Assembly (NCBI GenBank): GCA_019326865.1
Contig: GCA_019326865.1_4101.1
Strand: one strand, 5' to 3'
Source: a phage
Length of the DNA: 64,000 nt
Of the stretch, positions 19,854 through 61,451 are shown piece after piece. Both the position numbers and the translations under genes were made by a program. The first letter of the stretch is position 1, and every line of letters starts with the position of its first letter. The notes below the pieces were generated by a model. It was given only the letters and a program-made list of their open reading frames with translations, searched no databases and was not told the origin of the DNA.

Positions 19854-19859
19854 CAGTAC

Positions 19860-23880: not shown

Positions 23881-23889
23881 GGAGAACAT

Positions 23890-25036: not shown

Positions 25037-25037
25037 T

Positions 25038-26108: not shown

Positions 26109-26117
26109 GGAAGTGTT

Positions 26118-26666: not shown

Positions 26667-26819
26667 TGAAAGAGTTATTTGAAGATCAGTTCAATACCTA
26701 TGTGGATAATATTCTTTATTCCAATCGTGCCAGTCAACGAGGAAATCGTGCTTACAATATTGATTACCTATTAGTGGTACTGAGTTCACAGTACACACAC
26801 GCTGTACAGAGGATGTATT

Positions 26820-27264: not shown

Positions 27265-27300
27265 AATCTTCGTATTCATATATCATAAGGTTTAATAAAA

Positions 27301-28029
27301 ATGAAATATAAAGAATTTTGTATAAAAACATGGATGTACACTGGTGAATTGCTTACGTGCTGTAATTTGTACAAGCGTGATGTAAACTTCACAAAGGACA
27401 AAGTTATCAAGTATGAAAATTCTCAATTTTATTTGATGGATTTTAGTACTGGGTTTCATGGTAAATCAACCGAGATGCTGGATTATACATTAATGGATGA
27501 GGCGGCACTATTTCAAGAATCATTAGTATTTGATAAGAAGTACATCTGTACATTAGAAGAGATGATTGAAATTCAGAATAAAATTAAATGTGTTCACAGG
27601 GAATGTATTGATAAATGGTGTAAAACTGGTGAAACTGATTTTAGTAATCATTTTAATTTAGGAGAAAGAGTGATGGAATTTGATTTTTTAATATCAGTGC
27701 ATACATTCAAGAATACACATCAGTACTTTTGTAATTTAAACAAAGGTGATTTAATGCACAGTGCGAATGAGTATATTCATTTTATGGATGGTAAATTCAC
27801 ATTCATTGATTACAGTTCATTACAATATCCACATCAAGATATGCCGGACTATACAATAATGAATGAGGCTGAACTATTTCAAGCTTCATTAGTATTTGAC
27901 AAGAAGTACATCTGTACATTTGAAGAAGTAATTACTATACAAAATGAAATGAAGGAGTATGCATCTTTGAATAAACCCAATGAAGGTATTAATCAAGAAT
28001 ACAAATTCAATATAGAGATTCCAAAATGA
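27301..28029 (+). CDS. family B paralog with internal tandem duplication
   Basis: two motif copies: DEAALFQESLVFDKKYICTLEEM and NEAELFQASLVFDKKYICTFEEV. Confidence 0.6.
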   Translation: MKYKEFCIKTWMYTGELLTCCNLYKRDVNFTKDKVIKYENSQFYLMDFSTGFHGKSTEMLDYTLMDEAALFQESLVFDKKYICTLEEMIEIQNKIKCVHRECIDKWCKTGETDFSNHFNLGERVMEFDFLISVHTFKNTHQYFCNLNKGDLMHSANEYIHFMDGKFTFIDYSSLQYPHQDMPDYTIMNEAELFQASLVFDKKYICTFEEVITIQNEMKEYASLNKPNEGINQEYKFNIEIPK

Positions 28030-28385
28030 CATATGATTATTCTATGTACTATTATAAGTTACCTAAAGGATGGGACTTGTGCTGTAATCTTATTAAGGGA
28101 GACTCGGAACATGAGTTGAATTTATATATGCACTACAAAGATTCTTGTTTTAAATTTATTCATGTATCACATGATGACTATGACTATGAATCTGAGAGTC
28201 TTATAGATTATACAGTACTGGACGATGGCGAACTATTTCAGGAAGCATTAGTGTTTGATAAGAATAAGTACTCCTGTACATTTGAAGAAATGGTTTCTTT
28301 GCAAACTGAAATGAAGAGATTTGAAAAAGAAAACGTATTTAATCCATCCCCATCAAGAACGAATAATTATTATTTCAATATATGA
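28026..28385 (+). CDS. family B paralog, hypothetical
   Basis: famB DDGELFQEALVFDKNKYSCTFEEM; ATGA-coupled; third copy of the unit in 27301..28029. Confidence 0.6.
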   Translation: MTYDYSMYYYKLPKGWDLCCNLIKGDSEHELNLYMHYKDSCFKFIHVSHDDYDYESESLIDYTVLDDGELFQEALVFDKNKYSCTFEEMVSLQTEMKRFEKENVFNPSPSRTNNYYFNI

Positions 28386-28394
28386 GATTATAAA

Positions 28395-28877
28395 ATGACA
28401 TTACAGAGTTCATTGGAAAAAGCAAAGAAGATTCATGAGTACATGAATATGGCAAAAGAAGGTTCAGTTTACGGTGTTTTCAAAGACACAAGTACTCAAT
28501 ATTATGTGCCGGATAACCTCCTTTATAATGACTACTCAGATACAGAAACGTGCGTACTGGATACCGACCCTAAAGATTATGAATGTTTCATTGATATGCA
28601 TTATGAGTACATGGTCTATATTAATGATGCAGATATTACCATATACAGTACTGACTGCGATTCTGATGACATTATAATTCCTAGTGAAGTTCTGAATGGC
28701 CCGTGGGATAGTGAAGAGTATTACTTCCAACAAAGTACTGTATACAATGAAGAAGTACTTGATGTTATTATAATTATGTGGTACTTTAAAAATATTGGTT
28801 CTGATAACTTCTATTTCGATTACAGATACGTAAAGAAAGCTATAGATAACGATATTAATAAACCACACGGGGGTTGA
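28395..28877 (+). CDS. family B paralog (WYFK subgroup)
   Basis: famB DSEEYYFQQSTVYNEE...WYFKN; N-terminus MTLQSSLEKAKK. Confidence 0.65.
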   Translation: MTLQSSLEKAKKIHEYMNMAKEGSVYGVFKDTSTQYYVPDNLLYNDYSDTETCVLDTDPKDYECFIDMHYEYMVYINDADITIYSTDCDSDDIIIPSEVLNGPWDSEEYYFQQSTVYNEEVLDVIIIMWYFKNIGSDNFYFDYRYVKKAIDNDINKPHGG

Positions 28878-28878
28878 A

Positions 28879-29349
28879 ATGAGTTTAGAAAGAGCATTAG
28901 AGATTGCGAAGTTAATTGATTTATGCAGCAAAGAAATTGTATCAAATTGTCTCAATGGATATCTATTCAAGGAAGGTAAATCATATTGTCGAATGAGATA
29001 CGATGACAGTAGTGAGTATATTCACATGTATGAAGAAGACCTTGATGATTCCGAAATAACACTGAATGGGTGTGATGTTAATCTGGAAGATAATTACATT
29101 TACTTCAGTCGTGGTGCTGATATTTTAATACAAGAAACATCAATTCAACATGTGAATCCAGATGTATATCTTCCATATTCAGTACTGGATAATGACTGGG
29201 GAAGTGAAGAGGTTTACTTTCAGCATAATACTATCTACGATGAAGATGTGCTTGACAAGCTTGTCATTCTGTGGTACTTTAAGAACACTGATACTCCCAA
29301 CTTCTATATGGATTTGGATCTACTACGAGTTATAAAAGAGGATATATGA
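28879..29349 (+). CDS. family B paralog (WYFK subgroup)
   Basis: famB GSEEVYFQHNTIYDED...WYFKN. Confidence 0.65.
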   Translation: MSLERALEIAKLIDLCSKEIVSNCLNGYLFKEGKSYCRMRYDDSSEYIHMYEEDLDDSEITLNGCDVNLEDNYIYFSRGADILIQETSIQHVNPDVYLPYSVLDNDWGSEEVYFQHNTIYDEDVLDKLVILWYFKNTDTPNFYMDLDLLRVIKEDI

Positions 29350-29789
29350 GTTTAGCAAGTGCACTTAAACTGGCACACAAAATACATCACTTCCACGATA
29401 ACATAAAAAGTGGGTTCAATGGTGATAAAGTAAGTGCATTGGGTAATGAGTATTATCTATCAGGTATAAAGACATACTCTGATGATATTTTACTTATGGG
29501 ACATGATAAAGACAATACTATACAGTACTCTTCATGTAGTCAATATACTAGTTTTATGGTATATATTCCAGGTACTAAGATTACGTTTGACACATCAAAT
29601 TCACCTGTTGACTTCGGGGTACTTGATGGCCCGTGGGGTACTGAAGAGTATTACTTCCAACAGAGTCTTATTTTCAACCAAGAAATTCTTGATTCCTTGG
29701 TTGTTTTGTGGTACTTTAAGGAATTGAATTTTGAACCATTCTTTCTTGACTGGGGAGCATGTGAGTATTTAAGTACAGGGGATTTGTAA
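29346..29789 (+). CDS. family B paralog (WYFK subgroup)
   Basis: famB GTEEYYFQQSLIFNQE...WYFKE; ATGA-coupled. Confidence 0.65.
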   Translation: MSLASALKLAHKIHHFHDNIKSGFNGDKVSALGNEYYLSGIKTYSDDILLMGHDKDNTIQYSSCSQYTSFMVYIPGTKITFDTSNSPVDFGVLDGPWGTEEYYFQQSLIFNQEILDSLVVLWYFKELNFEPFFLDWGACEYLSTGDL

Positions 29790-30277
29790 TGTCGTTACAA
29801 AGTGCATTAAAAGAAGCAAAGAAAATCCATGAGTACATGATTATGGTACAAGAAGGTTCAGTCCCAGGTGTGTATAAAACATCTGATACTGAATTTTTTG
29901 TAAAAGACCGTGACGATTATGATGAGTCAGAGATATGTGCAGAAACGTTAGTACTGCACACTGATACTGGTGATAGTGATAACTGTGAATATCATATGTA
30001 CAATCAATACATTAGTTATTGCCGTAATGAAGATATTACCATCTACAACACAGATATTGATGCTGATGACACTATCATTCCGTATTCAGTACTGGAAGGT
30101 CCGTGGGATAGTGAAGAGTATTACTTTCAGAATAGTACTATCTACAATGAAGAAGAACTGGATGTTATTGTGATTATGTGGTACTTTAAAAGTATTGACT
30201 CCAGTAGTTTCTATTTTGATTATGAATATGTAGAGAATACAGTAGGAGAAGGTAATGTCATTACAAAGTGCTCTTGA
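29789..30277 (+). CDS. family B paralog (WYFK subgroup)
   Basis: famB DSEEYYFQNSTIYNEE...WYFKS. Confidence 0.65.
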   Translation: MSLQSALKEAKKIHEYMIMVQEGSVPGVYKTSDTEFFVKDRDDYDESEICAETLVLHTDTGDSDNCEYHMYNQYISYCRNEDITIYNTDIDADDTIIPYSVLEGPWDSEEYYFQNSTIYNEEELDVIVIMWYFKSIDSSSFYFDYEYVENTVGEGNVITKCS

Positions 30278-30701
30278 AAAAGCAAAAGAACTACATGGAT
30301 ACTTTGAAGATATAAAGGCAGGAAAGTTCAAAGAAGTATACAAAGCCGAGAACGGTAACTACTACAAAGATGAAATATATAATAATTCCGTTGGTGTAAG
30401 GGTTATTCTTGGGTTGAATTCCAATAGTCCTGTGTCGTTTTCTGAATACAATAGAGATGCAGAATTCATTAGTTATGTTGAAAATGGTAGCATTCGTTTT
30501 ATTAATAGACAAAAACCATTAATTTTGAATTATGAAGTTCTGGATGGTCAATGGGATAATGAAGAGTATTACTTCCAAAACAGTACTGTATACGACGATG
30601 AAGTACTTGAAGCATTAGTTATTATGTGGTACTTCAAGAGTATTAACTGTCCTCGATTTTATTTGGATTTCGAAGAACTTGGTAAAGATCCAGAGGTATA
30701 G
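30255..30701 (+). CDS. family B paralog (WYFK subgroup)
   Basis: famB DNEEYYFQNSTVYDDE...WYFKS; SD AGGAGAAGG. Confidence 0.65.
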   Translation: MSLQSALEKAKELHGYFEDIKAGKFKEVYKAENGNYYKDEIYNNSVGVRVILGLNSNSPVSFSEYNRDAEFISYVENGSIRFINRQKPLILNYEVLDGQWDNEEYYFQNSTVYDDEVLEALVIMWYFKSINCPRFYLDFEELGKDPEV

Positions 30702-31017
30702 AATGAAAAACTTATTCAGTGTTCAGTACGTTCCAGGTGAAATTAGTTTATTGTATCTCTTTGACCATGATAATTCATTATTACTAGTAGTAAAGAAATG
30801 TCAAGCTAGTTCGTTTGTTGAATACATTCACGATAATGAATATATACCTGATTTTTTAGAGTGCGATTATTACGATGATCATGAATCATTTATTTTTCAG
30901 GAATCGCTAGTATGGGACAAATCGATTAACTTCTTTACGTTAATTGAATTACAAAAGCAAGTGAAGTATCATTGGGATTATTTAATTACACAGGATTACA
31001 TTGAGATAGAAATATAA
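30679..31017 (+). CDS. family B paralog, hypothetical
   Basis: famB DHESFIFQESLVWDKS. Confidence 0.55.
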   Translation: MVKIQRYRMKNLFSVQYVPGEISLLYLFDHDNSLLLVVKKCQASSFVEYIHDNEYIPDFLECDYYDDHESFIFQESLVWDKSINFFTLIELQKQVKYHWDYLITQDYIEIEI

Positions 31018-31325
31018 TGACTAAAAATGAATTTGATTCACTTTGTACTGTTTATAATTCATTAACAGAAATACCTAACTTTATTAGTTATATTTCAGCT
31101 TTAAATCACATTATGCATAGTTTTGAACAATCGTTTGAGGAGAAATATGCTGGAAGAAAAGTTCTATGTCATATGCCAATGTACTTAGGAGATGGTGAGC
31201 CTTACACTACAAGTACTACATGTGAAATAAAAAAATATAATATATTATTGGGTACTATAGAATTCACAGTATCCAATGGCGGTAGTTATATGTACTTTAG
31301 AGATGGAGTGGTTGAATTATTATGA
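31017..31325 (+). CDS. hypothetical protein (102 aa)
   Basis: ORF track; no family motif. Confidence 0.5.
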   Translation: MTKNEFDSLCTVYNSLTEIPNFISYISALNHIMHSFEQSFEEKYAGRKVLCHMPMYLGDGEPYTTSTTCEIKKYNILLGTIEFTVSNGGSYMYFRDGVVELL

Positions 31326-31771
31326 GTTACGAAAGTGCAATCAAGAAAGCAAATGATATTCTACGCGTCGTTCAATTCTTCAAAGAAAATCCTGAATACG
31401 TAGATGATAAAAACCAAGAGCACGATGAGAGATTGAGACGAAAAATTATCTCTTTATTTGACACTAATAAAGATAATTGGAGTCTAATTGAGTTAGCATA
31501 CGATTATATTTCATTGAACCGAAATGATGATGTAGTTAAGATAGAAAGGCATGAATCAGAAGAATCTTTTAAAATTTCAGATATTTTATCCCTGAGTACT
31601 GAAGAAGGGTACTTCCAGGGTAGCACTCTTTATAATGAAGAAACACTTGACAATCTATGCACATTCAGTGTAATATATCAGAAATCTGTACTAGATATAT
31701 TTTATCTTGACACTGCTGAACTGCATACCCTAACCAATTTTGTTACTACCGAAGAGGCTACATTCGAGTGA
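31322..31771 (+). CDS. family B paralog, hypothetical
   Basis: famB STEEGYFQGSTLYNEE; ATGA-coupled. Confidence 0.6.
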   Translation: MSYESAIKKANDILRVVQFFKENPEYVDDKNQEHDERLRRKIISLFDTNKDNWSLIELAYDYISLNRNDDVVKIERHESEESFKISDILSLSTEEGYFQGSTLYNEETLDNLCTFSVIYQKSVLDIFYLDTAELHTLTNFVTTEEATFE

Positions 31772-32304
31772 TGAAAGTTAACATTAATGACTTTGATGCA
31801 TTACAAGATTTATCAAAAAAGATTCGCACCATCGTACCAGTACTTAAAAAATGCAGTACTGGTTTAATCGATCCTAGTTCTGTTGTCAATGAGAAGTACA
31901 ATTTTCATCGTGTATTACAGGGGACAGGTGCATTTCAGAAGTGTGAGGTACGTGAGAAACATGTAATTGATACATCGTTGTTTTCTATTGGTGCACCTGT
32001 GTCAAACAATACTATTTTCCTGGATGCATCTGGAAATATTCAACAATTAACATTTAAGAAAAGGAAAAAGAATAATAACATTGGTGTGTACGCGATGAAG
32101 TGGGGACAGCCAGCGTTGATGCGTGACATTCACATTCCTAAGTACAATTTCAATGCATTTGAAGAACAGTGTTTTCAACTTTCTTGTACTGACCCTGACT
32201 ATGCTATCATTCAATTCTATATGGAATTGCAGATTGCATTTAATAGTAATTTGTATATTAACTTATTGGCAATGAACATAGATGAAGTATTCAAAAACAT
32301 TTAA
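31768..32304 (+). CDS. family B paralog, hypothetical
   Basis: famB AFEEQCFQLSCTDPD; ATGA-coupled. Confidence 0.55.
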   Translation: MMKVNINDFDALQDLSKKIRTIVPVLKKCSTGLIDPSSVVNEKYNFHRVLQGTGAFQKCEVREKHVIDTSLFSIGAPVSNNTIFLDASGNIQQLTFKKRKKNNNIGVYAMKWGQPALMRDIHIPKYNFNAFEEQCFQLSCTDPDYAIIQFYMELQIAFNSNLYINLLAMNIDEVFKNI

Positions 32305-32500
32305 TCGAATTGAATACATGAGAACTGTGAGAGCGGTGTGGAATATATGGTACACTACTAAACCAAAAATGGATTACCATGATTTTAAGCTCTTGTTCTT
32401 TGTTGGCTCTAACAAACAGGATGTTGCAATGAAGGGTTATATTCAGCACTTACAGGAACTAATCCAGAAGAGAATATATGAAAATAATAGACCAAAATGA
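32282..32500 (+). CDS. family A paralog, hypothetical
   Basis: famA-like VGSNKQDVAM; stray copy inside family B array. Confidence 0.5.
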   Translation: MKYSKTFNRIEYMRTVRAVWNIWYTTKPKMDYHDFKLLFFVGSNKQDVAMKGYIQHLQELIQKRIYENNRPK

Positions 32501-32669
32501 CATTGCTAAACTATTCAATATATATTCTACTAGAATGATGCAAACAGATTCATATAGTACTAAATTCAAAGAGTTGAAAGTACTGATGTACTTGGGAACA
32601 CAATATCAGGAACAAGTTATTTTAGAATATATTAATTCATTAAAGAAGGATATCCGTGATGTACGATGA
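32478..32669 (+). CDS. family A paralog, hypothetical
   Basis: famA LGTQYQEQVI. Confidence 0.55.
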   Translation: MKIIDQNDIAKLFNIYSTRMMQTDSYSTKFKELKVLMYLGTQYQEQVILEYINSLKKDIRDVR

Positions 32670-33219
32670 TTTAGATCTTGCGTTTGAACGCATGAAAATT
32701 TTAATGCAATGCAATGAAATGCATGAGACAATCCGTCGCACCAAAGGGATTGAATATACAAGTAAACTATTCTCATACGAAAGTCGTCGAGGGATGGATC
32801 ATTTTTACTGCACTGATTGTTCAAAGTTTTCAGTACTGAAATATTATCATCCTACTGTTTCCAATAATAGTTTAATATCCACATATGACGGTGATCTGTT
32901 TAGTGTAATGTATGACACATTACATCCATCAATTTCAATATATAAAGATTGCGATAGTAGTCTATCGTATATAATTGAAGATTACTTATCTCCTAATACT
33001 GAAGAGAATATATTTCAAAACAGTGTATTGCATGATGAATTAAGTATAAAATGCATCTATATGTTCAATAAGTTAAAAGAATACGTTGATAATAATTACT
33101 TAATTGATGAGTTAGCTGTGTTTTCGGTTTCAGTTTTCAATACAAATGATGTTGATATGAAATACTATAATGAAATTTGTAAAGTACATAACATGTATAA
33201 GGAACTCTTATGCTACTAA
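32656..33219 (+). CDS. family B paralog, hypothetical
   Basis: famB TEENIFQNSVLHDE. Confidence 0.55.
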   Translation: MMYDDLDLAFERMKILMQCNEMHETIRRTKGIEYTSKLFSYESRRGMDHFYCTDCSKFSVLKYYHPTVSNNSLISTYDGDLFSVMYDTLHPSISIYKDCDSSLSYIIEDYLSPNTEENIFQNSVLHDELSIKCIYMFNKLKEYVDNNYLIDELAVFSVSVFNTNDVDMKYYNEICKVHNMYKELLCY

Positions 33220-33812
33220 ATGCCAATAAATGTTGTAGTGCAGATGTGCATTTGTTTTTTAAGAAATTGGCAAATGATATTATATATATGCAGGAAATGA
33301 TTTACCACAAACGAACAGATTTAGAAAAAGCATTAGTACAGTTCTCCTTTATGCTTGATGGTGATATATTTCTACATGGTGATACATTGCGAACAGTACT
33401 GGACGGAAATTCAAATAGAAGTTTCATTTGTACAAATAATAAATTTTCTTCCACGATGTGCCGTACTTTTTATAATCCTGATTCGGACTTATATCAAGTG
33501 TCGTATTCTAAAGGTGCAGTTGAATCATCATATTGTGATAGTTCAGCTTTAGGTAAAAGTCGTCCATATATGCAATCATTTGAAATTGAACTCATCAGTA
33601 CTGATGAAGATGCAATGTTCACAAATGATATAACGATGGATCGTGAATCTGCAATGATATATATTACAAATTCTATGCATACATTCTTTCAACGATTAGA
33701 ATTTGATAATGTATATATATCAAATGTAAATATTTTCAATGATCTGTGTCAGTACTTGAAAAGTGTTTGTGATTTTGATGAAAGCTATTGTAAGCTTTAT
33801 ACTGAGGTATAA
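33210..33812 (+). CDS. hypothetical protein (200 aa), possible degenerate family B
   Basis: ORF track; weak motif TDEDAMFTNDITMD. Confidence 0.5.
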   Translation: MLLNANKCCSADVHLFFKKLANDIIYMQEMIYHKRTDLEKALVQFSFMLDGDIFLHGDTLRTVLDGNSNRSFICTNNKFSSTMCRTFYNPDSDLYQVSYSKGAVESSYCDSSALGKSRPYMQSFEIELISTDEDAMFTNDITMDRESAMIYITNSMHTFFQRLEFDNVYISNVNIFNDLCQYLKSVCDFDESYCKLYTEV

Positions 33813-33817
33813 AACAA

Positions 33818-34180
33818 ATGAACACATTAAGTATTACATACTATACAACTAAAAAATTAGTTACTTGTTTAATATCATTGAAGTCAAAAAATGATGATAT
33901 GTTTGATATGGCTGCATATGAATTAGAATTATCAGAAGATGGTTTCAAGATCTATGAAGTATATAGCTATGTTCGTGAAGATGTAATTGACACTACACTA
34001 ATGCAAGAGGATGAGTTATTCCAAGAAAGTTTAGTATGGGATAATAAGTACGATTGTAACTTTGATTTCTTATGTTTAATCCAAAAAGAAATGAAAAGAA
34101 TCTTTGATAATTATCCAATCAAACGTTTCAGTACTGCACCTGAGCAATATAAAAGGATTATATTCACCTATGAAGATTGA
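33818..34180 (+). CDS. family B paralog, hypothetical
   Basis: famB QEDELFQESLVWDNKYDCNFD. Confidence 0.6.
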   Translation: MNTLSITYYTTKKLVTCLISLKSKNDDMFDMAAYELELSEDGFKIYEVYSYVREDVIDTTLMQEDELFQESLVWDNKYDCNFDFLCLIQKEMKRIFDNYPIKRFSTAPEQYKRIIFTYED

Positions 34181-34547
34181 ATTTGAAGTTATTACATATA
34201 GTATAGGTGATGGTATCCGTTGCTACGTACAAGCAAGGCATATTGTTCCTGATGATAAACTGTCACCCAAAAGTTTCCTTATTACACAAGAACTCTTAGA
34301 TATTAACAGAGAGAACAAGTATACATATTATCTCACTAAGGGTTATTGTGGTTCGCGTGGTTTTAATATTGTAGCTGTTTCTAGAGATGAAATTGATGAT
34401 TTAACTGAGTACGGTGAAGAAGAGATGTTCCAGTACAGTACTGTTTTTAATGATCTGGATGTGTTTCTGTTACGAAAAATACAACACATTATGCAAGAAT
34501 GTTTGCATCATAAGAGAGGTATTGTATGCGACGTGAAATTGAATTAG
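34170..34547 (+). CDS. family B paralog, hypothetical
   Basis: famB GEEEMFQYSTVFND; start moved from track 34104 to ATG 34170. Confidence 0.55.
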   Translation: MKIEFEVITYSIGDGIRCYVQARHIVPDDKLSPKSFLITQELLDINRENKYTYYLTKGYCGSRGFNIVAVSRDEIDDLTEYGEEEMFQYSTVFNDLDVFLLRKIQHIMQECLHHKRGIVCDVKLN

Positions 34548-34867
34548 TTAAAGTAATGTACGCTACTCATATTAAACTACTACTTGTGAAATTTGATTAT
34601 AATAAAAAACATAATGATTTCTATACGTTGATTCGTGATGAAAATTCATTCTCCTTGCGATGCAACAATATACAGTGGACGATAAATGATTTTTCTTCAC
34701 TTGACGAAGGTGAATTATTTCAAGAATCATTAGTTCTTAATAGTAATATAAAAATTGATATAGAAGCTATTAAAAAATACCAGATTTTATTAAACAAAAT
34801 TATGAATTGTTATCCATGTGAAATAGGCGGTAATATGCAGTTCAAATCAAAAATGTATGAATTATGA
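34526..34867 (+). CDS. family B paralog, hypothetical
   Basis: famB LDEGELFQESLVLNS. Confidence 0.55.
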   Translation: MRREIELVKVMYATHIKLLLVKFDYNKKHNDFYTLIRDENSFSLRCNNIQWTINDFSSLDEGELFQESLVLNSNIKIDIEAIKKYQILLNKIMNCYPCEIGGNMQFKSKMYEL

Positions 34868-35411
34868 GGTTTATATGTTAGATGAAAAAATGAACGCTGG
34901 AACTCAATATAATCATCTTAAGTTGGATACATTTGAATCAGCTATCAGTACTGCACAAGATATTATCGATATTATTAAGTACATTAAAGAAAATAAGTTA
35001 AAATGTGTGAAAACACCCGAACGTACAATGTATAAAGATGACTGTATTCACGTATCTGTTGTTAATCCAAAAGATAAGGATGGTAATAGAGATTTCTATA
35101 ATAACAGTGAGCAGTTCGAATGTGAATATGATCCAGAATTCAGAGGCGGTTTCATGTGTTACAGTATGAAGGATACCTCACACATTGAGATACGTTCATC
35201 TAAAGGTGGCATACGTACATTAGAGTTCATTGATATAGTTTTAAATCAGGAATACTACTTTCAACTATCATTATTGTTTCCTGCATACGATTTAGGAGTT
35301 CTATTCATGTATAAGTACTTTTATGAGCACTTGAATGAAGACTTCTATCTGGACTTAGAAGATTACCAATTAGTTTGGGAAGAAATGGTAGAACTTCGCA
35401 ACCACCCTTGA
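34857..35411 (+). CDS. family B paralog, hypothetical
   Basis: famB NQEYYFQLSLLFPA. Confidence 0.55.
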   Translation: MNYEVYMLDEKMNAGTQYNHLKLDTFESAISTAQDIIDIIKYIKENKLKCVKTPERTMYKDDCIHVSVVNPKDKDGNRDFYNNSEQFECEYDPEFRGGFMCYSMKDTSHIEIRSSKGGIRTLEFIDIVLNQEYYFQLSLLFPAYDLGVLFMYKYFYEHLNEDFYLDLEDYQLVWEEMVELRNHP

Positions 35412-35470
35412 CACCCACCGATTCTTTGTGATATAATCCCTTTATATTAATTTTAAAGGGTTATAACACA

Positions 35471-35947
35471 ATGTCAAACGAACTCACATTCACCAATGCA
35501 CAAAAGATAGCAAAAGACATTATCAGGGTTTATAAATTCCTTGCGAATGTTACTGAAGATTTTTTAATTGATAAAAATAAAGTTATTAAGCGAAATGGAT
35601 ACCTTTCCTTTATGGATGGGTTGCTCTATAGTTCAGATGAGTCAGCTTGTAGTATTAGAGTACTTGATACTGTACCAAGTGGTGATTTTATTTCATACCA
35701 TTTTCCAAGTTCAGATAAGTTCAAATACTACAATAGTATTCTCATAGCAGAAGACTTTGATACGATTGTAATTAACACTGAAGAAGAGTTCTTCCAGTAC
35801 AGTACTGTGTACCCAGAGAGGATTGTTTTCAGTTCAGTGATTTACACTACCCTTAAAAATGAACTAAATTCCGATAGTGATCATTTCTACTTGGACCTGA
35901 ATAATATCGATTGTATTATTGAGTACATGGAGAAAAATGGTTTATGA
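35471..35947 (+). CDS. family B paralog, hypothetical
   Basis: famB TEEEFFQYSTVYPE. Confidence 0.6.
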   Translation: MSNELTFTNAQKIAKDIIRVYKFLANVTEDFLIDKNKVIKRNGYLSFMDGLLYSSDESACSIRVLDTVPSGDFISYHFPSSDKFKYYNSILIAEDFDTIVINTEEEFFQYSTVYPERIVFSSVIYTTLKNELNSDSDHFYLDLNNIDCIIEYMEKNGL

Positions 35948-36447
35948 TTACTACAGAATATGATTACAATAGTGTCCTTGAATTTGCAGAAAATATATAT
36001 CGTATTGCAAAGGAGTTCAGAAGTCCTGAGCCGTTTGGTGGTATGTTCGAATACGATGAGTTTAGTTCATCAAAAGGAAGACTTGCATTTACTAATGGTA
36101 GAGGTAATCAAATCTACACAGAGTACTTTGATGACAATGACTTTCATCACAAAGCCGAATACATTTCATATTGCCCTGGGTCTGATTTGAAGATTCATAT
36201 TGAAAGAGATATAGAAAATGTATTTGTTCCATATACTGATTTAGTCTTCATGTCAGAGGAAATGTACTTTCAGGAATCATTGATTCATGATACAAAAGTA
36301 CTTAATACTATATTATTATATGGTACACTACTTAATCATTACAAATACAATCAAAGATTCTTTTTAGATTTAGTAGTATACCATCAATGTGTGGATTATT
36401 TGAATGCAAAATCAGACAACAATTCAGTACATGACCGATGGTTCTGA
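35944..36447 (+). CDS. family B paralog, hypothetical
   Basis: famB SEEMYFQESLIHDT; ATGA-coupled. Confidence 0.6.
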   Translation: MITTEYDYNSVLEFAENIYRIAKEFRSPEPFGGMFEYDEFSSSKGRLAFTNGRGNQIYTEYFDDNDFHHKAEYISYCPGSDLKIHIERDIENVFVPYTDLVFMSEEMYFQESLIHDTKVLNTILLYGTLLNHYKYNQRFFLDLVVYHQCVDYLNAKSDNNSVHDRWF

Positions 36448-36766
36448 ATACTTTGTTTCAAGATATGTAATAAATCACAACCATTATGTAACCTATATTC
36501 CAGAGTACAATCAATTTTATATCCAGATTTATCAACATAATGGAAAGAGAAATGATATATATTCAGAAATAAAAATCCCTGATTATAGTTCTTTATCAGA
36601 AGAGGAATTGTTTCAGGAGAGCACTATCAGTACTGAAGATGTGTACGAAATAATGGAGTACCAGAAGGTACTTAAACATTTTCATGAAACAAATGATATA
36701 CAAATAGATATTGTTAAACCGTGGTGTTACAATACATATGAGGTAAATTATGTTAGAAATGATTAA
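36431..36766 (+). CDS. family B paralog, hypothetical
   Basis: famB SEEELFQESTISTED; start moved from track 36404 to ATG 36431. Confidence 0.55.
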   Translation: MTDGSEYFVSRYVINHNHYVTYIPEYNQFYIQIYQHNGKRNDIYSEIKIPDYSSLSEEELFQESTISTEDVYEIMEYQKVLKHFHETNDIQIDIVKPWCYNTYEVNYVRND

Positions 36767-37163
36767 AATTATGCAACGCTGTCTTATTGACAAATACGGG
36801 ATATATGGATATCGTTTAAGTGCTCCTATTGACAAAAATAAAACAACCTATGTAAGTTATAATGCTGTACAAGGGTTTGATATATTCATTAGTACTAATT
36901 ATCAAATCAAACAAGCTAAAGATGTGTCTATAATGACCCCTGATGAGTTATTTCAGTACAGCTTAGTTCTTCCTACATGTATCGATTTACAACGTCTAGG
37001 AGCGATACAGAAGGTTTTACGCGAACATAAAGTACAACCCAATAAAGTCACGCACATTCCAGAAACAATCTTCAAAACTATAGAAGTAGAAACCCCTGAT
37101 TATATGTTAAGTGATGATGAATTCTACGAGAAGCACTTCCCTGGTAAAGTTTGGAGAGACTAA
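36750..37163 (+). CDS. family B paralog, hypothetical
   Basis: famB TPDELFQYSLVLPT. Confidence 0.55.
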   Translation: MLEMIKIMQRCLIDKYGIYGYRLSAPIDKNKTTYVSYNAVQGFDIFISTNYQIKQAKDVSIMTPDELFQYSLVLPTCIDLQRLGAIQKVLREHKVQPNKVTHIPETIFKTIEVETPDYMLSDDEFYEKHFPGKVWRD

Positions 37164-37645
37164 TGAACCGAAAGTACAGAGAAACTATGAAGTTCGCTAA
37201 GGAGTGTTTAGAGACATTTGATTTCATTTTCGATAACAAAGACTCACTTGGTCATTACTTCGTAATTACAAAAAAAGAAGATGAGAGATACAAGTGTCAA
37301 AGATTAGGATACAGTATTGAGTTATCCTTAATGAGTGATGGTATGATAAACTCCATATATGAATCTGGTAAGACAGATTACATTTCATTTAGATCATGGA
37401 GTGATAATATAATGTTCTTGAGTCCTAATGGAAGTAAATATCCATTCATTAATGATTTATCAGAAGAAAGTTACTTTCAAAACAGTTTAATTTATACAGA
37501 AAAAGAACTCAAAATGTTATTCATAATGTCGTACTTTAAAAAGTACTGTAAATTTAAATCATTATCTTTTGAGATTTCTGCGATGAAAGTATTCATTAAA
37601 AATGTAAAAGAATTAAAGAGGGCTTTTAATGTACATAGAAAATGA
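37151..37645 (+). CDS. family B paralog, hypothetical
   Basis: famB SEESYFQNSLIYTEKE...SYFKK. Confidence 0.6.
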   Translation: MERLMNRKYRETMKFAKECLETFDFIFDNKDSLGHYFVITKKEDERYKCQRLGYSIELSLMSDGMINSIYESGKTDYISFRSWSDNIMFLSPNGSKYPFINDLSEESYFQNSLIYTEKELKMLFIMSYFKKYCKFKSLSFEISAMKVFIKNVKELKRAFNVHRK

Positions 37646-51933: not shown

Positions 51934-52463
51934 AAGAAACATGTATATTATCATTTATGAGATGTAACCCAGTCCACAATGGACATGGTTTAGTTTTTGA
52001 AAAGGCCAAAACATTACAAGAACAGTACAATGCTGATTTAAAAATTTATCTAAGCACTAGTACTGACAATATAAAAAACCCACTACCACCTGAACTAAAA
52101 ATGTATTATACAGAGGGATTCTATCCTTCAGTGCAAGAGAACATCTACACAGAGGACAATCTATTTGATATAATGAGAGAACTGGATGGAAAGTACTTAG
52201 ATGTTCTCTTCATATGTGGTTCTGACCGTATTGATTCTTTTCAGAAAACCCTTGACACTTACAATGGGAAGTTGTATAATTTTTGTAATATAAAAGTAAT
52301 TCAAGCAGGTATTGACCGCCAATCAAGTCGATATAGCTCAACACAAATGCGTAAGTTTGCCAAAAATGAAGATTTTGATAGTTTTCGTGAGTTTTTGCCT
52401 GGAAATGACGAGAACTTAAAAATTCAATTATTTGAAGATGTTATAAAATACATGAGGAAATAA
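51930..52463 (+). CDS. HxGH nucleotidyltransferase, NMN adenylyltransferase-like
   Basis: N-terminal RCNPVHNGH (H-x-G-H) and SSTQMRKF (S-x-T-x-x-R) as in short NMNAT/cytidylyltransferases; ATGA-coupled to methyltransferase. Confidence 0.55.
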   Translation: MKETCILSFMRCNPVHNGHGLVFEKAKTLQEQYNADLKIYLSTSTDNIKNPLPPELKMYYTEGFYPSVQENIYTEDNLFDIMRELDGKYLDVLFICGSDRIDSFQKTLDTYNGKLYNFCNIKVIQAGIDRQSSRYSSTQMRKFAKNEDFDSFREFLPGNDENLKIQLFEDVIKYMRK

Positions 52464-52465: not shown

Positions 52466-52759
52466 ATGTCAGTACTGTTCAAAACTAATCCAGTACTTTG
52501 GGAACAAAATGAACAATCAGGATTTCGTTCCATCCATGTTGAATACAAAGGTAATACAGTAGTTGCAATTATTGCTAACAAAACTCTAGGAAAATGGACC
52601 GCACAGGTTGTTCCTATGGGCTATTCTTATACATCTGATGAGGTTCAATTTTTAGCTGAACTTTATCGTCAAGTTCCTTTTATTATTAATGTGTTAGAAG
52701 GCAATGATACATTATCACATGAAGATGTGATTGATTTTCTTGGAAACTTACATGTGTGA
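52466..52759 (+). CDS. hypothetical protein (97 aa)
   Basis: ORF track. Confidence 0.5.
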   Translation: MSVLFKTNPVLWEQNEQSGFRSIHVEYKGNTVVAIIANKTLGKWTAQVVPMGYSYTSDEVQFLAELYRQVPFIINVLEGNDTLSHEDVIDFLGNLHV

Positions 52760-53039
52760 TGAAATAAATCTTACAGGATATTTTTTACAAGAATCTATGA
52801 TCAAATTTAGTGAACATTTCCCAGTACTGGATGGTATCGAAATGTGGCATGTCAAACCACTGTTTCACACTTTCAGTAAAGAGCACAAAATGTTATTGAC
52901 TGAAGCGAGTAAATCAAATAACATATGTGAAATCAAAATTGGTGTAAATGTCTATAAAGGGATGGTTATCTTTTTTGACAATAACAGCAACTACTTTTAT
53001 ATTGTTAAGGAGCAATACGTTGACAAATACAAATACTAA
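52752..53039 (+). CDS. hypothetical protein (95 aa)
   Basis: track ORF 52731..53039; start moved to ATG 52752 overlapping upstream stop. Confidence 0.45.
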   Translation: MCDEINLTGYFLQESMIKFSEHFPVLDGIEMWHVKPLFHTFSKEHKMLLTEASKSNNICEIKIGVNVYKGMVIFFDNNSNYFYIVKEQYVDKYKY

Positions 53040-53628: not shown

Positions 53629-53633
53629 TATAT

Positions 53634-53661
53634 AGCCCGACATAAGTTCGGGCTATTTTTG
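53634..53661 (+). terminator. rho-independent terminator
   Basis: AGCCCGA-CATAAGT-TCGGGCT followed by ATTTTTG. Confidence 0.7.
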
Positions 53662-53672: not shown

Positions 53673-53948
53673 ATGAATTATAAATTTCTACAATATACAT
53701 ACACAATATTATTTGATTTACATCACAATGGACGATATATCAACACAATACGAGAAAACACATTTACTCATATGTTATGGATTGATTACTTAGAAACGAT
53801 TCGTGCATATTTTGTTAATACTGAGATAATCATTCGTGGTAAAAAACAGAAGATTCAACATGTTAATAGTTATGGTGGTAAATTAACTCTAACATTTACC
53901 GATAATAATACTAATGAAATGTGTTGTATCGAGTTGGTGAACATATGA
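53673..53948 (+). CDS. family C paralog (about 90 aa), hypothetical
   Basis: N-terminus MNYKFLQYTYTILFDL; first of 5 tandem copies. Confidence 0.6.
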   Translation: MNYKFLQYTYTILFDLHHNGRYINTIRENTFTHMLWIDYLETIRAYFVNTEIIIRGKKQKIQHVNSYGGKLTLTFTDNNTNEMCCIELVNI

Positions 53949-54211
53949 ATTATAAAGATTTCCAATTAACATATAAGATTATTCGCAATCTAGCACACAG
54001 CAATAATAGCCCTAGTCTAGAAGACACATGCACAGAAATGATCCATACGATTCGTGCAAAGATTGAAGAAAATTTCAGTACTGTTATTATTAATGATGAC
54101 CATGCAGAATTTTCTGATATAATCATTAGACGTGATGGTAAAGTTGAGGTTCAGTACTACACTGATTTTGGATTTACAAGTGTACCGTTGGAGATATTCC
54201 CTTGGGATTAA
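53945..54211 (+). CDS. family C paralog, hypothetical
   Basis: MNYKDFQLTYKIIRNL; start moved from track 53921 to ATGA-coupled ATG. Confidence 0.55.
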   Translation: MNYKDFQLTYKIIRNLAHSNNSPSLEDTCTEMIHTIRAKIEENFSTVIINDDHAEFSDIIIRRDGKVEVQYYTDFGFTSVPLEIFPWD

Positions 54212-54513
54212 ATTTAAATGATATACAATTCACTTATAAGGTACTATATGATTTGTATGATGCATACCTTGTTAGTAACAAAATAGGTTCACATAACCCA
54301 ACCAAAGAACAATCATTTATTGATTTATATATTGAGTACTTAGATTCTATTGAAAACTATCTCAAAAAGAATTACAGTACTTTTATCGATGGAAATGATA
54401 CATTCGATTTCTATGGTGTGCAATCATATGATGGTATAATCCATGTTCAATTTCAGGAAAGAACCGATAGGGAATTTATCGAAATTAAAGTTGTGAAGTT
54501 GGTGAATTTATAA
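54202..54513 (+). CDS. family C paralog, hypothetical
   Basis: LNDIQFTYKVLYDL; track start is TTG, no in-frame ATG nearby. Confidence 0.5.
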   Translation: MGLNLNDIQFTYKVLYDLYDAYLVSNKIGSHNPTKEQSFIDLYIEYLDSIENYLKKNYSTFIDGNDTFDFYGVQSYDGIIHVQFQERTDREFIEIKVVKLVNL

Positions 54514-54523
54514 GAGGTTACAT

Positions 54524-54835
54524 ATGTTATTAAATGATATACAATTTACATACAAATTTTTGTATATCCAATTCGCAACGGTTGATGCTGGTGAATATAT
54601 CTACAGTGAAGTTTATCGTTCGATATGGATAAAGTTTTTAGATGAATTACATGAATATTACCATGATTTGCGTATAGTTCGTAATAATAAAATATACAAA
54701 TTCCGCGATATTGTTAGTCATAGCGGTAAGCTACGATTGGAATTAAGTACTGATAGTGATGTTGATTGGATTGGTGTAAATTTACTGGAGTTGGAGAATG
54801 AAAAGCAACTTAAAGGAAATACAAGTATTTTATAA
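54524..54835 (+). CDS. family C paralog, hypothetical
   Basis: MLLNDIQFTYKFLYIQF. Confidence 0.6.
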   Translation: MLLNDIQFTYKFLYIQFATVDAGEYIYSEVYRSIWIKFLDELHEYYHDLRIVRNNKIYKFRDIVSHSGKLRLELSTDSDVDWIGVNLLELENEKQLKGNTSIL

Positions 54836-55082
54836 ATTCTTATACTTGTCATATGTTAAAGATGAGTACTATGAAAGTGTGTATTATTTTTTATGGCAAC
54901 ATTACCGTACTATAGTAAGAGATTTATATCTAGGAAAATCTATCATATACAATGGTGAAAAATGTACATGTACGGATGTAGTTAGTTTTAATGGTTCTTT
55001 AACACTGTGTTTCAGATGCGATAATAATAGTGGGTCATTTTCATTAAACGTATATCAGTTAGAAGGAATAAATTTTGAATAA
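54798..55082 (+). CDS. family C paralog, hypothetical
   Basis: LKEIQVFYKFLYLSY. Confidence 0.55.
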   Translation: MKSNLKEIQVFYKFLYLSYVKDEYYESVYYFLWQHYRTIVRDLYLGKSIIYNGEKCTCTDVVSFNGSLTLCFRCDNNSGSFSLNVYQLEGINFE

Positions 55083-55275
55083 GTGTCCATATTGTAACAG
55101 TACTCAATTAGCTCGTTTCCGTTTAGATTCAGACTGGGCAACTGGTGCTGGGGATTTCTTCCCTATTAATGATGATGCGGAATACACCGAAGAACAACAC
55201 AAAGATTTTGATAAATCATGGCGACCGGACATTGAGTGCATTTATTGCCTTAATTGTGAGCGTGTCCATGACTAA
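55075..55275 (+). CDS. zinc-ribbon protein (66 aa)
   Basis: CPYC near N-terminus and CIYCLNC near C-terminus (paired CxxC). Confidence 0.55.
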   Translation: MNKCPYCNSTQLARFRLDSDWATGAGDFFPINDDAEYTEEQHKDFDKSWRPDIECIYCLNCERVHD

Positions 55276-55531
55276 AGCTGAACTAATAGTTCATACATAT
55301 AAAATGATATCAAGTACTGAGTTATCATATAGTGAAGATAATCCGGTACTGGATTATTTTGTGGAATTATTGAAAGACCATTATATTGGTAAATCACTGA
55401 ATCTTAATAATATTAATTTCACTGTAAAGGATGTAGCACCAGGTAAAAACGTACTAATAGTATGTGTTACTTCATCTGATAACCCAGTATACCCAATATC
55501 AATAACTTTTGAGATATTAGGGGATGTATGA
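55268..55531 (+). CDS. hypothetical protein (87 aa)
   Basis: track ORF 55145..55531; start moved to ATG 55268 (MTKAEL) just before upstream stop. Confidence 0.5.
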   Translation: MTKAELIVHTYKMISSTELSYSEDNPVLDYFVELLKDHYIGKSLNLNNINFTVKDVAPGKNVLIVCVTSSDNPVYPISITFEILGDV

Positions 55532-55818
55532 ATATCATTTTAATACAAAAAACATATACTCTACTAATGAAAGAATATGCTAATACTTATGATGAAAGGT
55601 GTAGTGCAATTCATAATATGTATGAATTTATTACTCAAGAGTACAGGGATTATATATATGCTGCGTTAGTGGGTAGATATTTCAGTACTAGAAAATACCC
55701 AAAACTTCAAATAGTTGATGTTTCTTTTTATTTCAATGGTCATATTACTATTCATAGTTTAGACCAAGATTCAACAACGTACTTAAACTTTTCATTTGAT
55801 GAGGTAACATTTTTATGA
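55528..55818 (+). CDS. hypothetical protein (96 aa), family C-like
   Basis: MNIILIQKTYTLLMKEY resembles family C N-termini; ATGA-coupled. Confidence 0.5.
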   Translation: MNIILIQKTYTLLMKEYANTYDERCSAIHNMYEFITQEYRDYIYAALVGRYFSTRKYPKLQIVDVSFYFNGHITIHSLDQDSTTYLNFSFDEVTFL

Positions 55819-55997
55819 GAACAGTATTTTTTATCTGGAGTCTTTTTTCATTGGCAGTACTGACAGTTTCAGGTGCTTATTCATTTTTAACAATGAACAC
55901 ATGGTATGTTAATTTACTATTCCCAATTGTTGGTGTTGGTTTAGGATTTAGTTTACATAGTGTATGTAAGGATTACAATGACAAATACAACAAATGA
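55815..55997 (+). CDS. small membrane protein (60 aa)
   Basis: two hydrophobic helices FFIWSLFSLAVLTVSGA and LLFPIVGVGLGFSL. Confidence 0.5.
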   Translation: MRTVFFIWSLFSLAVLTVSGAYSFLTMNTWYVNLLFPIVGVGLGFSLHSVCKDYNDKYNK

Positions 55998-56262
55998 AGT
56001 TCTTATTGCTGAAACAATGAAGATGATTTACTTTATTACTACGGCACAGGATTTGTCTTATCCAGTGAAATCGTTACTTAGGTCAATGTATCTTGATATT
56101 GTAAAAGAATATTATAAATCTAAACACAGAAGCATTATTAGTGTTTATCGTGATTATGAAAGGATTCGTATTTTATTCTGGAACAAGAATCGAGTACGTT
56201 CTGAATGTGATCTAGTAGATTTTAAATTAGAGAATCTTTATTCTTACAAAGCGGGACAATAG
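55978..56262 (+). CDS. hypothetical protein (94 aa)
   Basis: track ORF 55960..56262; start moved to ATG 55978. Confidence 0.45.
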   Translation: MTNTTNEVLIAETMKMIYFITTAQDLSYPVKSLLRSMYLDIVKEYYKSKHRSIISVYRDYERIRILFWNKNRVRSECDLVDFKLENLYSYKAGQ

Positions 56263-56320
56263 TTTAAATCATGATATAATAATGGATAAGGAACAATAAC
56301 TAACACAAGGAGTGTGTAAA

Positions 56321-57049
56321 GTGCTTGACCGTATCCGTTTCGCTACAGAGATGGCGAATGAATTAAACATGGCAAATTTCCAAATGTTAACATCAGTAAT
56401 GGCTGAACATGCATGTGCTTATTCTGTAAGCGGGGTGCAGTGTGGTCAGGAAAATATGTTAGCAGATGTTTATAGTGAAGTTCAAAGTAAACAATATAGT
56501 GTAAAGACTTACAAGGACAAGTTTGTCAGTCTTTACATGAATGAAGATATTAAAGAAGATCGTAAATTCACTGATTTTATTATTGAACGTCGAGTATCGG
56601 GTGTATCTAATCCTAATGCATCAAGTGATGAAGTATTTGTGGAAGTACTTCAAGATATATATGAAAATGAATTGAAAAGTAAGAATCATTACAATGTACG
56701 TGAAACTAGCACAGTGCTCTTGGGATATGATGAAGACGAACAATATTATTATTTCCGTATGACTGAAGTTCCATTTGAATATAAATCACCAAACACCACA
56801 TCAGTTAAAGAATTTACTGAAAAAAGTAAAAATTACATGAAACATGAAGGTAATCGCTGTAGTGTGAATGGTTATGATGAAAATGGTGTTCATGTTTACG
56901 AGTGGATTCATCCTAACTGTCAGACATACACCCGTTGCTTGAAAAAACGTTATAATTTAGAAGAGCATGACTCATTCTATTTTAAGGTAAAGAAACAAGA
57001 TTACCGTCGCCCTGATGATTCTGAATTAATGGGGATGGTCTATTTCTAA
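56321..57049 (+). CDS. hypothetical protein (about 242 aa)
   Basis: track ORF starts GTG 56312 only 1 nt after SD AAGGAG; GTG 56321 has better spacing. Confidence 0.5.
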   Translation: MLDRIRFATEMANELNMANFQMLTSVMAEHACAYSVSGVQCGQENMLADVYSEVQSKQYSVKTYKDKFVSLYMNEDIKEDRKFTDFIIERRVSGVSNPNASSDEVFVEVLQDIYENELKSKNHYNVRETSTVLLGYDEDEQYYYFRMTEVPFEYKSPNTTSVKEFTEKSKNYMKHEGNRCSVNGYDENGVHVYEWIHPNCQTYTRCLKKRYNLEEHDSFYFKVKKQDYRRPDDSELMGMVYF

Positions 57050-57059: not shown

Positions 57060-57344
57060 ATGGATTTATACTCACATGCTTGGACATTCGAACAGTATAT
57101 TTCATTATATAATGAAATTTACAATACTGATATGTCATACTGCAATTATTTTCGCAATATGATCGATGAATATTCAAAGGAATTTAATAGTTTATACCTT
57201 TATGTTAATAAAGAAGTTACACATAAGACTATGAATAAAACAGGTACAATTGATGAAATTTCATTTGATTCCTATGGTGTGTATTTCTATATTACATTTT
57301 CTGATGATACTTTAGGTATACACACTTATAGTGAGTTAAAATAA
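57060..57344 (+). CDS. hypothetical protein (94 aa)
   Basis: ORF track; followed by terminator. Confidence 0.55.
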   Translation: MDLYSHAWTFEQYISLYNEIYNTDMSYCNYFRNMIDEYSKEFNSLYLYVNKEVTHKTMNKTGTIDEISFDSYGVYFYITFSDDTLGIHTYSELK

Positions 57345-57351
57345 AAATATA

Positions 57352-57376
57352 GGCCAGCGTTTGCTGGTCTTTTTTC
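57352..57376 (+). terminator. rho-independent terminator
   Basis: GGCCAGC-GTTT-GCTGGTC followed by TTTTTT. Confidence 0.65.
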
Positions 57377-57388: not shown

Positions 57389-57691
57389 ATGATCAGTATA
57401 GATTTAATTGATAGTACTATAAAAATGTTGGCTGATTTAGTGAGACAATCCAATGAAACTTTATACCAATCAATGTATAAAATGTTTGACCGATACATCA
57501 AGGATTGTAACATATCATTATATGGACTTGCTGTTGATATAGACGATTACTATGGTATTAATACTTCATATGAAACAGGAATTTTAATTGGTATTAATAT
57601 AAAGATGGGATATTATCCTTATTACTGTATAGGATTACCAGATAATACGTTGGTAGAATATCCAGCCAGTACTATTAAATTAAGAGGATAA
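57389..57691 (+). CDS. hypothetical protein (100 aa)
   Basis: ORF track. Confidence 0.5.
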   Translation: MISIDLIDSTIKMLADLVRQSNETLYQSMYKMFDRYIKDCNISLYGLAVDIDDYYGINTSYETGILIGINIKMGYYPYYCIGLPDNTLVEYPASTIKLRG

Positions 57692-60661: not shown

Positions 60662-60892
60662 ATGAAAGTTGAAGTTCAGCATAGTATTGTTCAAGATATG
60701 TCTGTAGTTAAATTTCTTTCATTAAAAGATTACTTTAGATGTATCAAGTTCCTAGAAGAATCTCATTTAAAATGGACTCCATTAAAGTACAGTTCATCCA
60801 AAGACACTGCTAGTATTCGTTGTGATGAAGCTGTACTCGTAAAAATCTCTAAAAGATTTGGGATAGGTAAAGTGAATGAGCACAGTAAATGA
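60662..60892 (+). CDS. hypothetical protein (76 aa)
   Basis: ORF track; SD AAGGAG. Confidence 0.55.
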   Translation: MKVEVQHSIVQDMSVVKFLSLKDYFRCIKFLEESHLKWTPLKYSSSKDTASIRCDEAVLVKISKRFGIGKVNEHSK

Positions 60893-61130
60893 ACTAAAAT
60901 ACTACAACAAAATTGCGGATACGTTTATTACTCATTTATATGAAGAATTCAGTAGTATCCGCAAGGAATATACAGGTAAATGTATTTTATATAGTTCTTA
61001 TCTTAGTGGAAGAATTGAACGTGCTTACATTACTAAAGTGAAGTTTTCTGATGATTATCAATTACTATTTGAATTGGATGATTGTTTAGTCATTGAAGCT
61101 GATTTAATAGTAGATGTGCTGAACAATTGA
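60876..61130 (+). CDS. hypothetical protein (84 aa)
   Basis: ORF track. Confidence 0.5.
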   Translation: MSTVNELKYYNKIADTFITHLYEEFSSIRKEYTGKCILYSSYLSGRIERAYITKVKFSDDYQLLFELDDCLVIEADLIVDVLNN

Positions 61131-61136: not shown

Positions 61137-61451
61137 ATGAATAAAGAACTTGCATATAAGGGTATCGAAAAGCTAAAGTTCGTTGAAAAGGAACTAATAG
61201 AATCAGTTGAAACAATGGTTGAAGATTACGTTTTTGATTTTAAGAAAACATTAATTGGATGTAAAGTCAAATGCTGGGATCATACCATTAGAGAATGGTT
61301 CAGTGCTATAATTCTTGATGTTAAAGTATCTCGAACTGGTATTGGTAACTTAGTAAATGGTGAATGCTTTGTATACACTGAATACAATAACGGTACAAGA
61401 CACCTTTCAAAAGGATGGCACAATCTCGAAGATGTAGAATTCATTGAGTAA
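61137..61451 (+). CDS. hypothetical protein (104 aa)
   Basis: ORF track; SD TGAGGA. Confidence 0.55.
   Translation: MNKELAYKGIEKLKFVEKELIESVETMVEDYVFDFKKTLIGCKVKCWDHTIREWFSAIILDVKVSRTGIGNLVNGECFVYTEYNNGTRHLSKGWHNLEDVEFIE

Follow-up and report, generated by a model that had tools for sequence, protein, structure and literature searches.

In this study we describe five adjacent genes, here called C1 to C5 in their order, at positions 53673-55082 of a 64,000-nucleotide stretch of phage DNA (GenBank assembly GCA_019326865.1, contig GCA_019326865.1_4101.1; the whole stretch is called the window). Judged by their sequences, the five are genuine full-length paralogues, and together with their relatives we refer to them as family C. 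As to their role, we see about an even chance that the products are non-enzymatic early proteins that bind host or competitor macromolecules stoichiometrically and have diversified on a common scaffold. The window belongs to an Asteriusvirus jumbo coliphage of the 121Q/PBECO4/UE-S1 group and shares 92-94% DNA identity with SP27, UE-S1, 121Q, PBECO4 and phAPEC6 of that genus. C1-C5 correspond to gp422-426 of 121Q, every one annotated "hypothetical protein", and the orthologues of the family in phAPEC6 are gp384 and gp386-389. Upstream of the array lies a pair of genes for a Dam methylase and a nucleotidyltransferase, and downstream are genes for a T4-type RNA ligase, RnlA, and a polynucleotide kinase. 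An earlier note, made from the letters of the window alone, had pointed to five adjacent open reading frames (ORFs) of similar length; its coordinates are exact, all five lie on the plus strand, and the products have 88-103 residues. The genes and one probable, dispersed relative are as follows.

53673-53948, plus strand: C1, 91 residues, ATG start with AAGGGG upstream; 121Q gp422; phrog_32291
53945-54211, plus strand: C2, 88 residues from the ATG at 53945; 121Q gp423; phrog_35943
54202-54513, plus strand: C3, 103 residues, TTG start with GGAG at 54190-54193; 121Q gp424; phrog_21004
54524-54835, plus strand: C4, 103 residues, ATG start with AGAGG upstream; 121Q gp425; phrog_21004
54798-55082, plus strand: C5, 94 residues, ATG start with GGAG upstream
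55528-55818, plus strand: probable sixth, dispersed member, 96 residues; phrog_28826

We regard C1-C5 as full-length paralogues because pairwise alignments, leave-one-out profiles, clade profiles and remnants of DNA identity all point to this. BLASTP aligned C1 with C3, C3 with C4, C4 with C5 and C1 with C4 over 89-102 residues at 24-30% identity, and it joined C2 to the family via C1 and C3. In a leave-one-out analysis a hidden Markov model (HMM) was built from the other window copies only and run against 299 window ORFs of at least 45 residues on both strands. The omitted gene ranked first of 299 in each of the five cases, with E-values of 8e-16 for C1, 1.7e-5 for C2, 1.7e-11 for C3, 1.1e-12 for C4 and 2.3e-10 for C5. 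The likeness that the earlier note had read from the N-termini is thus significant over the full length in an alignment and HMM of the five copies, and it extends past the N-terminus: when training and target sequences were both shortened by their first 20 residues, C1, C3, C4 and C5 still ranked first (E 2e-10 to 4.5e-5), and the E-value of C2, the most divergent copy, rose to 0.064. Profiles that include orthologues from other phages joined C2 as well. When each clade was compared with the rest by hhalign, probabilities were 99.3% for C1, 95.6% for C2 (79 columns), 98.3% for C3, 99.5% for C4 and 99.4% for C5, over 79-92 columns. At the DNA level, C1 and C2 retain remnants of identity in register at three places (repeats D2, D4 and D8). 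The N-terminal helix motif of the family reads [LIF]-Q-x-T-Y-K-x-[LI], and an HMM limited to columns 1-20 matched exactly six window ORFs, C1-C5 and 55528-55818, with E 2e-10 to 6.5e-9; the best match outside these six has E 1.2.

An explanation by chance or composition would hold that AT-rich short ORFs, some of them not genes, resemble each other through similar amphipathic N-termini. Pairwise identity is indeed low (24-35%), C2 and 55528-55818 are insignificant without their first 20 residues when only window copies are used, and C5 is unannotated in some public records. However, this explanation is refuted by the leave-one-out E-values down to 8e-16 among 299 ORFs, in which minus-strand ORFs served as internal controls, and by the full-length profile-profile matches of 95.6-99.5%. 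It is also contradicted by a ratio of non-synonymous to synonymous substitution rates (dN/dS) that stays below 1 while synonymous changes are numerous, by a confident shared predicted fold, and by the orthologues in other lineages, conserved along with their start codons and Shine-Dalgarno sites. We consider it extremely improbable.

The array genes are packed head to tail, their starts and stops overlapping or nearly abutting, and a Shine-Dalgarno-like motif precedes each of C1-C5. The stop of C1 and the ATG of C2 share the letters ATGA, the TTG of C3 sits 10 nucleotides inside the end of C2, and C4 and C5 overlap by 38 nucleotides. The suggestion of the earlier note that the third copy starts at TTG, with no in-frame ATG, was borne out. 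The C3 ORF contains no methionine codon along its whole length, and the TTG at 54202 is the sole start-type codon from the upstream in-frame stop to the conserved N-terminal motif. This TTG and the GGAG 8 nucleotides upstream of it are unchanged in five further loci (UE-S1, 121Q, ph0011, L011 and L012), unlike the second codon, which is GGA, AGA or AAA. In L011, L012 and ph0011 the stop of C2 is a TGA overlapping the C3 start (TTGA), a junction analogous to the ATGA coupling junction. In the PBECO4 record the C3 orthologue is annotated from an internal TTG (86 residues, protein P0023).

The final ~13 residues of C4 are a tail produced by reading 38 nucleotides into C5; AlphaFold confidence is low there and the tail is modelled as disordered. 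In the L005 lineage C4 terminates at the start of C5. Public annotation of C5 itself is inconsistent: the gene is absent from the UE-S1 and phAPEC6 annotations, and in 121Q it starts at a later ATG (78 residues). The loci compared for this annotation were 54798-55082 in the window, 8799-9083 in L001, 2807-3091 in L014 and 8855-9091 in L002. A start at 54798 brings back the N-terminal helix of the family, and this ATG is supported because of the homology to the paralogues and the 94%-conserved L005 orthologue.

Family members are soluble proteins of 86-103 residues with no hydrophobic segments, and five of the six are acidic (isoelectric point 4.6-5.8), the exception being C1 at 7.8. An AlphaFold2 model of C4 from a 19-sequence alignment reached a predicted local distance difference test (pLDDT) score of 83.8 and a predicted template modelling (TM) score of 0.73, and the pLDDT of residues 99-103 is under 50. 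In the predicted fold two N-terminal helices form a hairpin that packs against an antiparallel beta meander of four strands; the helices span residues 3-19, 25-46 and, short, 87-92, and the strands 50-53, 56-66, 69-75 and 82-86. Conservation across the paralogues is limited to a few positions. Helix 1 holds three of them (Q7, T9 and Y10), helix 2 has an aromatic one, and G68 lies in the beta turn that joins strands two and three. Models of family members in BFVD show the same fold as the C4 model, and a search of that database returned family members plus a weak match to an 89-residue RaK2 protein.

Known families offered little to compare. Pfam-A gave no match above 17 bits (curated cut-offs 21-30), NCBIfam none at E 0.01 or better, and the PDB neither a significant sequence match to any chain nor a whole-protein fold analogue. 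In PHROG, end-to-end matches with E 1e-41 to 1e-57 were obtained for C3 and C4 (21004), C1 (32291), C2 (35943) and 55528-55818 (28826); C5 is without a PHROG of its own. PHROG lists four separate families of unknown function here, whereas our profile-profile comparison unites phrog_21004, phrog_32291, phrog_35943 and phrog_28826.

SH3/Tudor-like domains that interact with RNA polymerase (CarD, the Mfd RID, the C-terminal Tudor domain of PcrA) contain a small antiparallel beta unit of similar size; the matches to them are weak. It might be possible that the paralogues are small transcription modulators that bind nucleic acid or RNA polymerase, the hairpin and the SH3/Tudor-like unit redirecting the host polymerase alongside the TFIIS-like zinc-ribbon protein encoded next to the array. 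These weak fold hints and the adjacent zinc ribbon are what speaks for such a role, and nothing else does. However, the structural matches are all non-significant and partial (41-83 columns, TM score <0.4 on the query), there is no helix-turn-helix or basic surface in these mostly acidic proteins, and the conservation of the zinc-ribbon gene reaches far past the range of family C. We therefore find a role as transcription modulators quite improbable.

The earlier note had also listed four dispersed ORFs with similar N-termini as possible relatives, and here its proposal held for one of them. The ORF at 55528-55818, separated from the array by the zinc-ribbon gene and an 87-residue gene, matched the HMM of the five copies with E 8.4e-5 and the N-terminal-motif HMM with E 5.9e-9, and its clade matched the rest at 82.4% over 80 columns (hhalign). 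An HMM of window copies alone no longer picks it up significantly once the first 20 residues are cut. For its slurp01 orthologue, superposition of the BFVD model on that of C4 gave TM scores of 0.70/0.75. We take this ORF as the probable sixth member. The other three, at 57060, 62622 and 62879, failed every sequence test: they were noise in the full family HMM (E 6.4, 1.9 and 0.065, respectively), ranked 28, 121 and 52 with the N-terminal HMM (E 8-26), and reached 5.5%, 0.8% and 0.6% against the family by hhalign. A possible remote relative is the 87-residue gene at 55268-55531. It matches the family in register at 23.9% (hhalign), and C5 weakly matches its PHROG (E 0.029); its AlphaFold2 model has a helix and four strands ordered as in C4, but is unreliable (pLDDT 48.8).

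Family C was found solely in Asteriusvirus-like jumbo coliphages. Searches of 5.8 billion clustered proteins gave 34 and 23 matches, all from Asteriusvirus-like contigs. When 1.84 billion representatives were scanned exhaustively with an HMM, there were 20 matches, again proteins of ~90 residues from Asteriusvirus-like phages and contigs. A broader 27-sequence profile gained no further relatives. The long proteins P0045, P0046 and P0048 from the exhaustive scan were rejected as low-complexity artefacts with many short stretches and scattered spurious Pfam matches. All family proteins that were mapped to contigs lie in the same genomic slot, bordered by a conserved 226-residue gene and the zinc-ribbon gene. 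The content of this slot is as follows.

Window, UE-S1, 121Q, phAPEC6 and ph0011: C1-C2-C3-C4-C5
L005-L008: three C1-like copies, then C4 and C5 types
Phage JNE01: three members
L003/L004: one member before the zinc-ribbon gene and several weaker ones after it
Salmonella phage Munch and Klebsiella phage Muenster: no detectable member, despite common flanking synteny

The slot is plastic and probably evolves by birth and death. The flanking genes of L005 share 74-100% identity with their window counterparts, the zinc ribbon 100%, and its C5 shares 94%; array positions 1-4 have merely 29-41% identity to any window copy, and the best match of positions 1-3 is C1 in every case. Compared with UE-S1, 121Q and ph0011, dN/dS of C1-C5 is 0.16-0.53 (C1 0.23-0.53, C2 0.22-0.29, C5 0.16-0.29), and because these values go with many synonymous changes we conclude that the genes are translated. 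The flanking genes for the 226-residue, zinc-ribbon and 245-residue proteins have dN/dS of 0.02-0.07. Hence purifying selection acts on C1-C5, but less strictly than on the genes next to them. Against ph0011, synonymous divergence (dS) is 1.25-1.31 for C1 and C3 and 0.38-0.70 for the flanks, which suggests allele replacement by recombination in addition to faster protein change.

These data bear on the idea that the paralogues are subunits of one phage hetero-oligomer with a regulatory or assembly function, translated in a coupled manner for fixed proportions. The overlapping starts and stops (ATGA, TTG/TTGA), the N-terminal motif common to all copies and the fact that two different lineages each have five copies and a further one would fit such a complex. 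However, copy number varies, with three in JNE01, one in the L003/L004 slot and none detectable in Munch and Muenster, and L005 has C1-like copies in place of C2 and C3. This variable slot content therefore argues against a complex of fixed composition. In addition, dN/dS is 3- to 10-fold above that of the conserved neighbours, and tight packing is normal for every gene of the region. A hetero-oligomer thus seems unlikely to us.

Three Salmonella phage records look at first like natural knock-outs. SD-1_S14 (L017) is without window positions 54072-54457 and 55378-55674, so that C3 and parts of C2 and of 55528-55818 are gone; protein P0029 of SD-6_S16 is a C2/C3 fusion; and the array of SD-15_S21 (L018) is also deleted or fused. 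We did not accept these as natural knock-outs, since the records are indel-rich and fragmented and might contain assembly or sequencing artefacts.

The elements of the plus strand that bear on expression of the array are the following.

52252-52280, plus strand: sigma-70 promoter, perfect consensus (TTGACA-17-TATAAT), upstream of the array
52975-53003, plus strand: sigma-70 promoter, near-consensus (TTGACA-17-TATATT, 11/12), the nearest strong one upstream of the array
53632-53656, plus strand: intrinsic-terminator-like hairpin, 9-base-pair stem with five G-C pairs, then the T run TTTTTGT, to 53662
57351-57370, plus strand: next terminator-like hairpin downstream, the element extending to 57376

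The first hairpin element ends 10 nucleotides before the C1 start, with no array promoter after it, and the hairpin at 57351 probably ends the transcription unit of the array. The window has 28 near-consensus sigma-70 promoters on the plus strand, 12 of them perfect (12/12; TTGACA-16/17/18-TATAAT), and three on the minus strand; the expected number is ~3.7. Their density on the plus strand is highest over the first 12 kilobases; examples are 3422-3449, 4031-4058, 7872-7900 and 35408-35437. The proposed late-promoter core of the related phages CBB and GAP32 is ATAAATA (PMC5259590). This heptamer occurs 0 times in both strands of the 64-kilobase window against ~52 expected, which points to strong counter-selection of stray late promoters throughout the block. 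The T4-type late-promoter core TATAAATA is likewise absent from both strands (~15 expected), and among all hexamers of the window TAAATA and TATTTA show the strongest under-representation. The middle-type promoter motif of CBB and GAP32 (TGAAACG...TATA) was not found in the window. In CBB, RpoD-like promoters are characteristic of a stretch with short hypothetical genes, which the authors of that study took for early host-takeover genes (PMC5259590). The window looks like the early region of its phage, and the array is likely to be transcribed early or middle by the host polymerase, because sigma-70 promoters are enriched and oriented and ATAAATA is absent.

A possible course of events would then be as follows. 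The array might have arisen by tandem duplication, followed by birth-and-death evolution and allele exchange between lineages. Host RNA polymerase would transcribe it early, within a polycistronic message, and translation would proceed by coupling. The products would be non-catalytic, stoichiometric binding proteins that modulate or block macromolecules of the host or of competing phages during takeover or counter-defence, each paralogue having a different specificity on the common scaffold. As stated above, we hold this role as stoichiometric binders to be about evenly poised between right and wrong; its counter-defence detail is less probable than the statement as a whole. A bolder version is that the scaffold, which has no PDB analogue, carries diversifying early inhibitors with one defence or takeover target each, and that the slot is a counter-defence 'island' in which copies are gained, lost and swapped. 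We regard this version as doubtful.

Several points weigh against the binder role. Binding and counter-defence are both deduced solely from how the family has evolved and where it lies, with indirect support from the early-region context, the fast turnover and the narrow distribution. In C1-C5 dN/dS never reaches 1, and the N-terminal Q-x-T-Y-K, strongly conserved in all paralogues, could equally reflect a partner common to them, a structural role or diversified targets. The terminator-like hairpin stands directly before C1, which makes level and timing of expression uncertain, and no transcriptome for the genus Asteriusvirus was found in the literature searched. As for a place in the particle, gp384 and gp386-389 go unmentioned in the main text of the paper on mass spectrometry of phAPEC6 virions (PMC7247149).

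The small genes around the array form a mosaic, some being conserved and others changing fast. Directly 3' of the array lies the zinc-ribbon gene (55075-55275, plus strand), which codes for 66 residues with a CxxC...CxxC pattern and starts at TTG in an ORF without a methionine codon. The L005 lineage, although divergent, has this protein at 100% identity (dN/dS ~0.02), its counterpart in Muenster carries the HHpred annotation TFIIS/RPB9-like, and the gene is conserved far outside the range of family C. Further downstream, 56312-57049 (plus strand) codes for a 245-residue protein of unknown function that is found at 58-92% identity in 71 phage records, covering the whole RaK2-like group, from phages of Escherichia, Klebsiella, Salmonella, Erwinia, Yersinia, Cronobacter, Pectobacterium and Xanthomonas. 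This gene is a useful synteny anchor. In ph0011 (L013, OP557969.1) a 494-residue gene at 10103-11587 stands between the orthologues of 55984-56262 and 56312-57049; it is absent in the window, 121Q and UE-S1. Single small genes at 57060-57344, 57389-57691, 60876-61130, 61137-61451 and 52752-53039 are hypervariable, being 32-53% identical to L005 where their neighbours are 83-98% identical, and the ORF at 57060 had no blastn match at 1e-10 in UE-S1, 121Q and ph0011.

Jumbo phages carry hundreds of small genes without known function, and tandem paralogue arrays make up a large part of them. Family C was not named or described in the literature searched. With the present analysis, four PHROGs and an often unannotated gene, C5, are united as one family with a confident predicted fold, and two gene starts are fixed, the TTG of C3 and the ATG of C5 at 54798. 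Asteriusvirus phages are therapy candidates against Escherichia coli O157 and avian pathogenic E. coli (APEC), and a search for anti-defence or host-takeover factors in them could reasonably turn to this slot with its fast turnover, probably in the early region.

Expansions of paralogues are a known trait of RaK2-like jumbo phages (PMC3622015, PMC5259590, PMC7824862). The earlier note had seen in family C a smaller version of expansions elsewhere in the window, and bigger arrays do exist there, including one of 29 members at 13.4-20.9 kilobases (ORFs of ~70-75 residues at 13419-20909, plus 32478-32669). Further families have seven members of ~150-165 residues at 28395-37645 and six members at 19287-34180. 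That family C is a branch of one of these larger families was ruled out (hhalign <1%). Like the known arrays of jumbo phages, family C is a tandem set of small proteins in one phage lineage only, situated among short hypothetical genes; its sequence has no relation to those of the window's other arrays or to any Pfam or NCBIfam family. Comparable slots exist in T4-like phages, at the variable internal-protein locus and in hyperplastic early regions, and in poxviruses with their 'gene accordion' expansions; small non-essential early genes lie there between conserved genes. Such genes vary in number and type among close relatives, and some are known to counter host defences. The likeness of the family C slot to these systems is by analogy only, with no relation in sequence or fold. 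In conclusion, the array invokes no new mechanism and is an ordinary example of the gene-family expansion that is common in giant phages.

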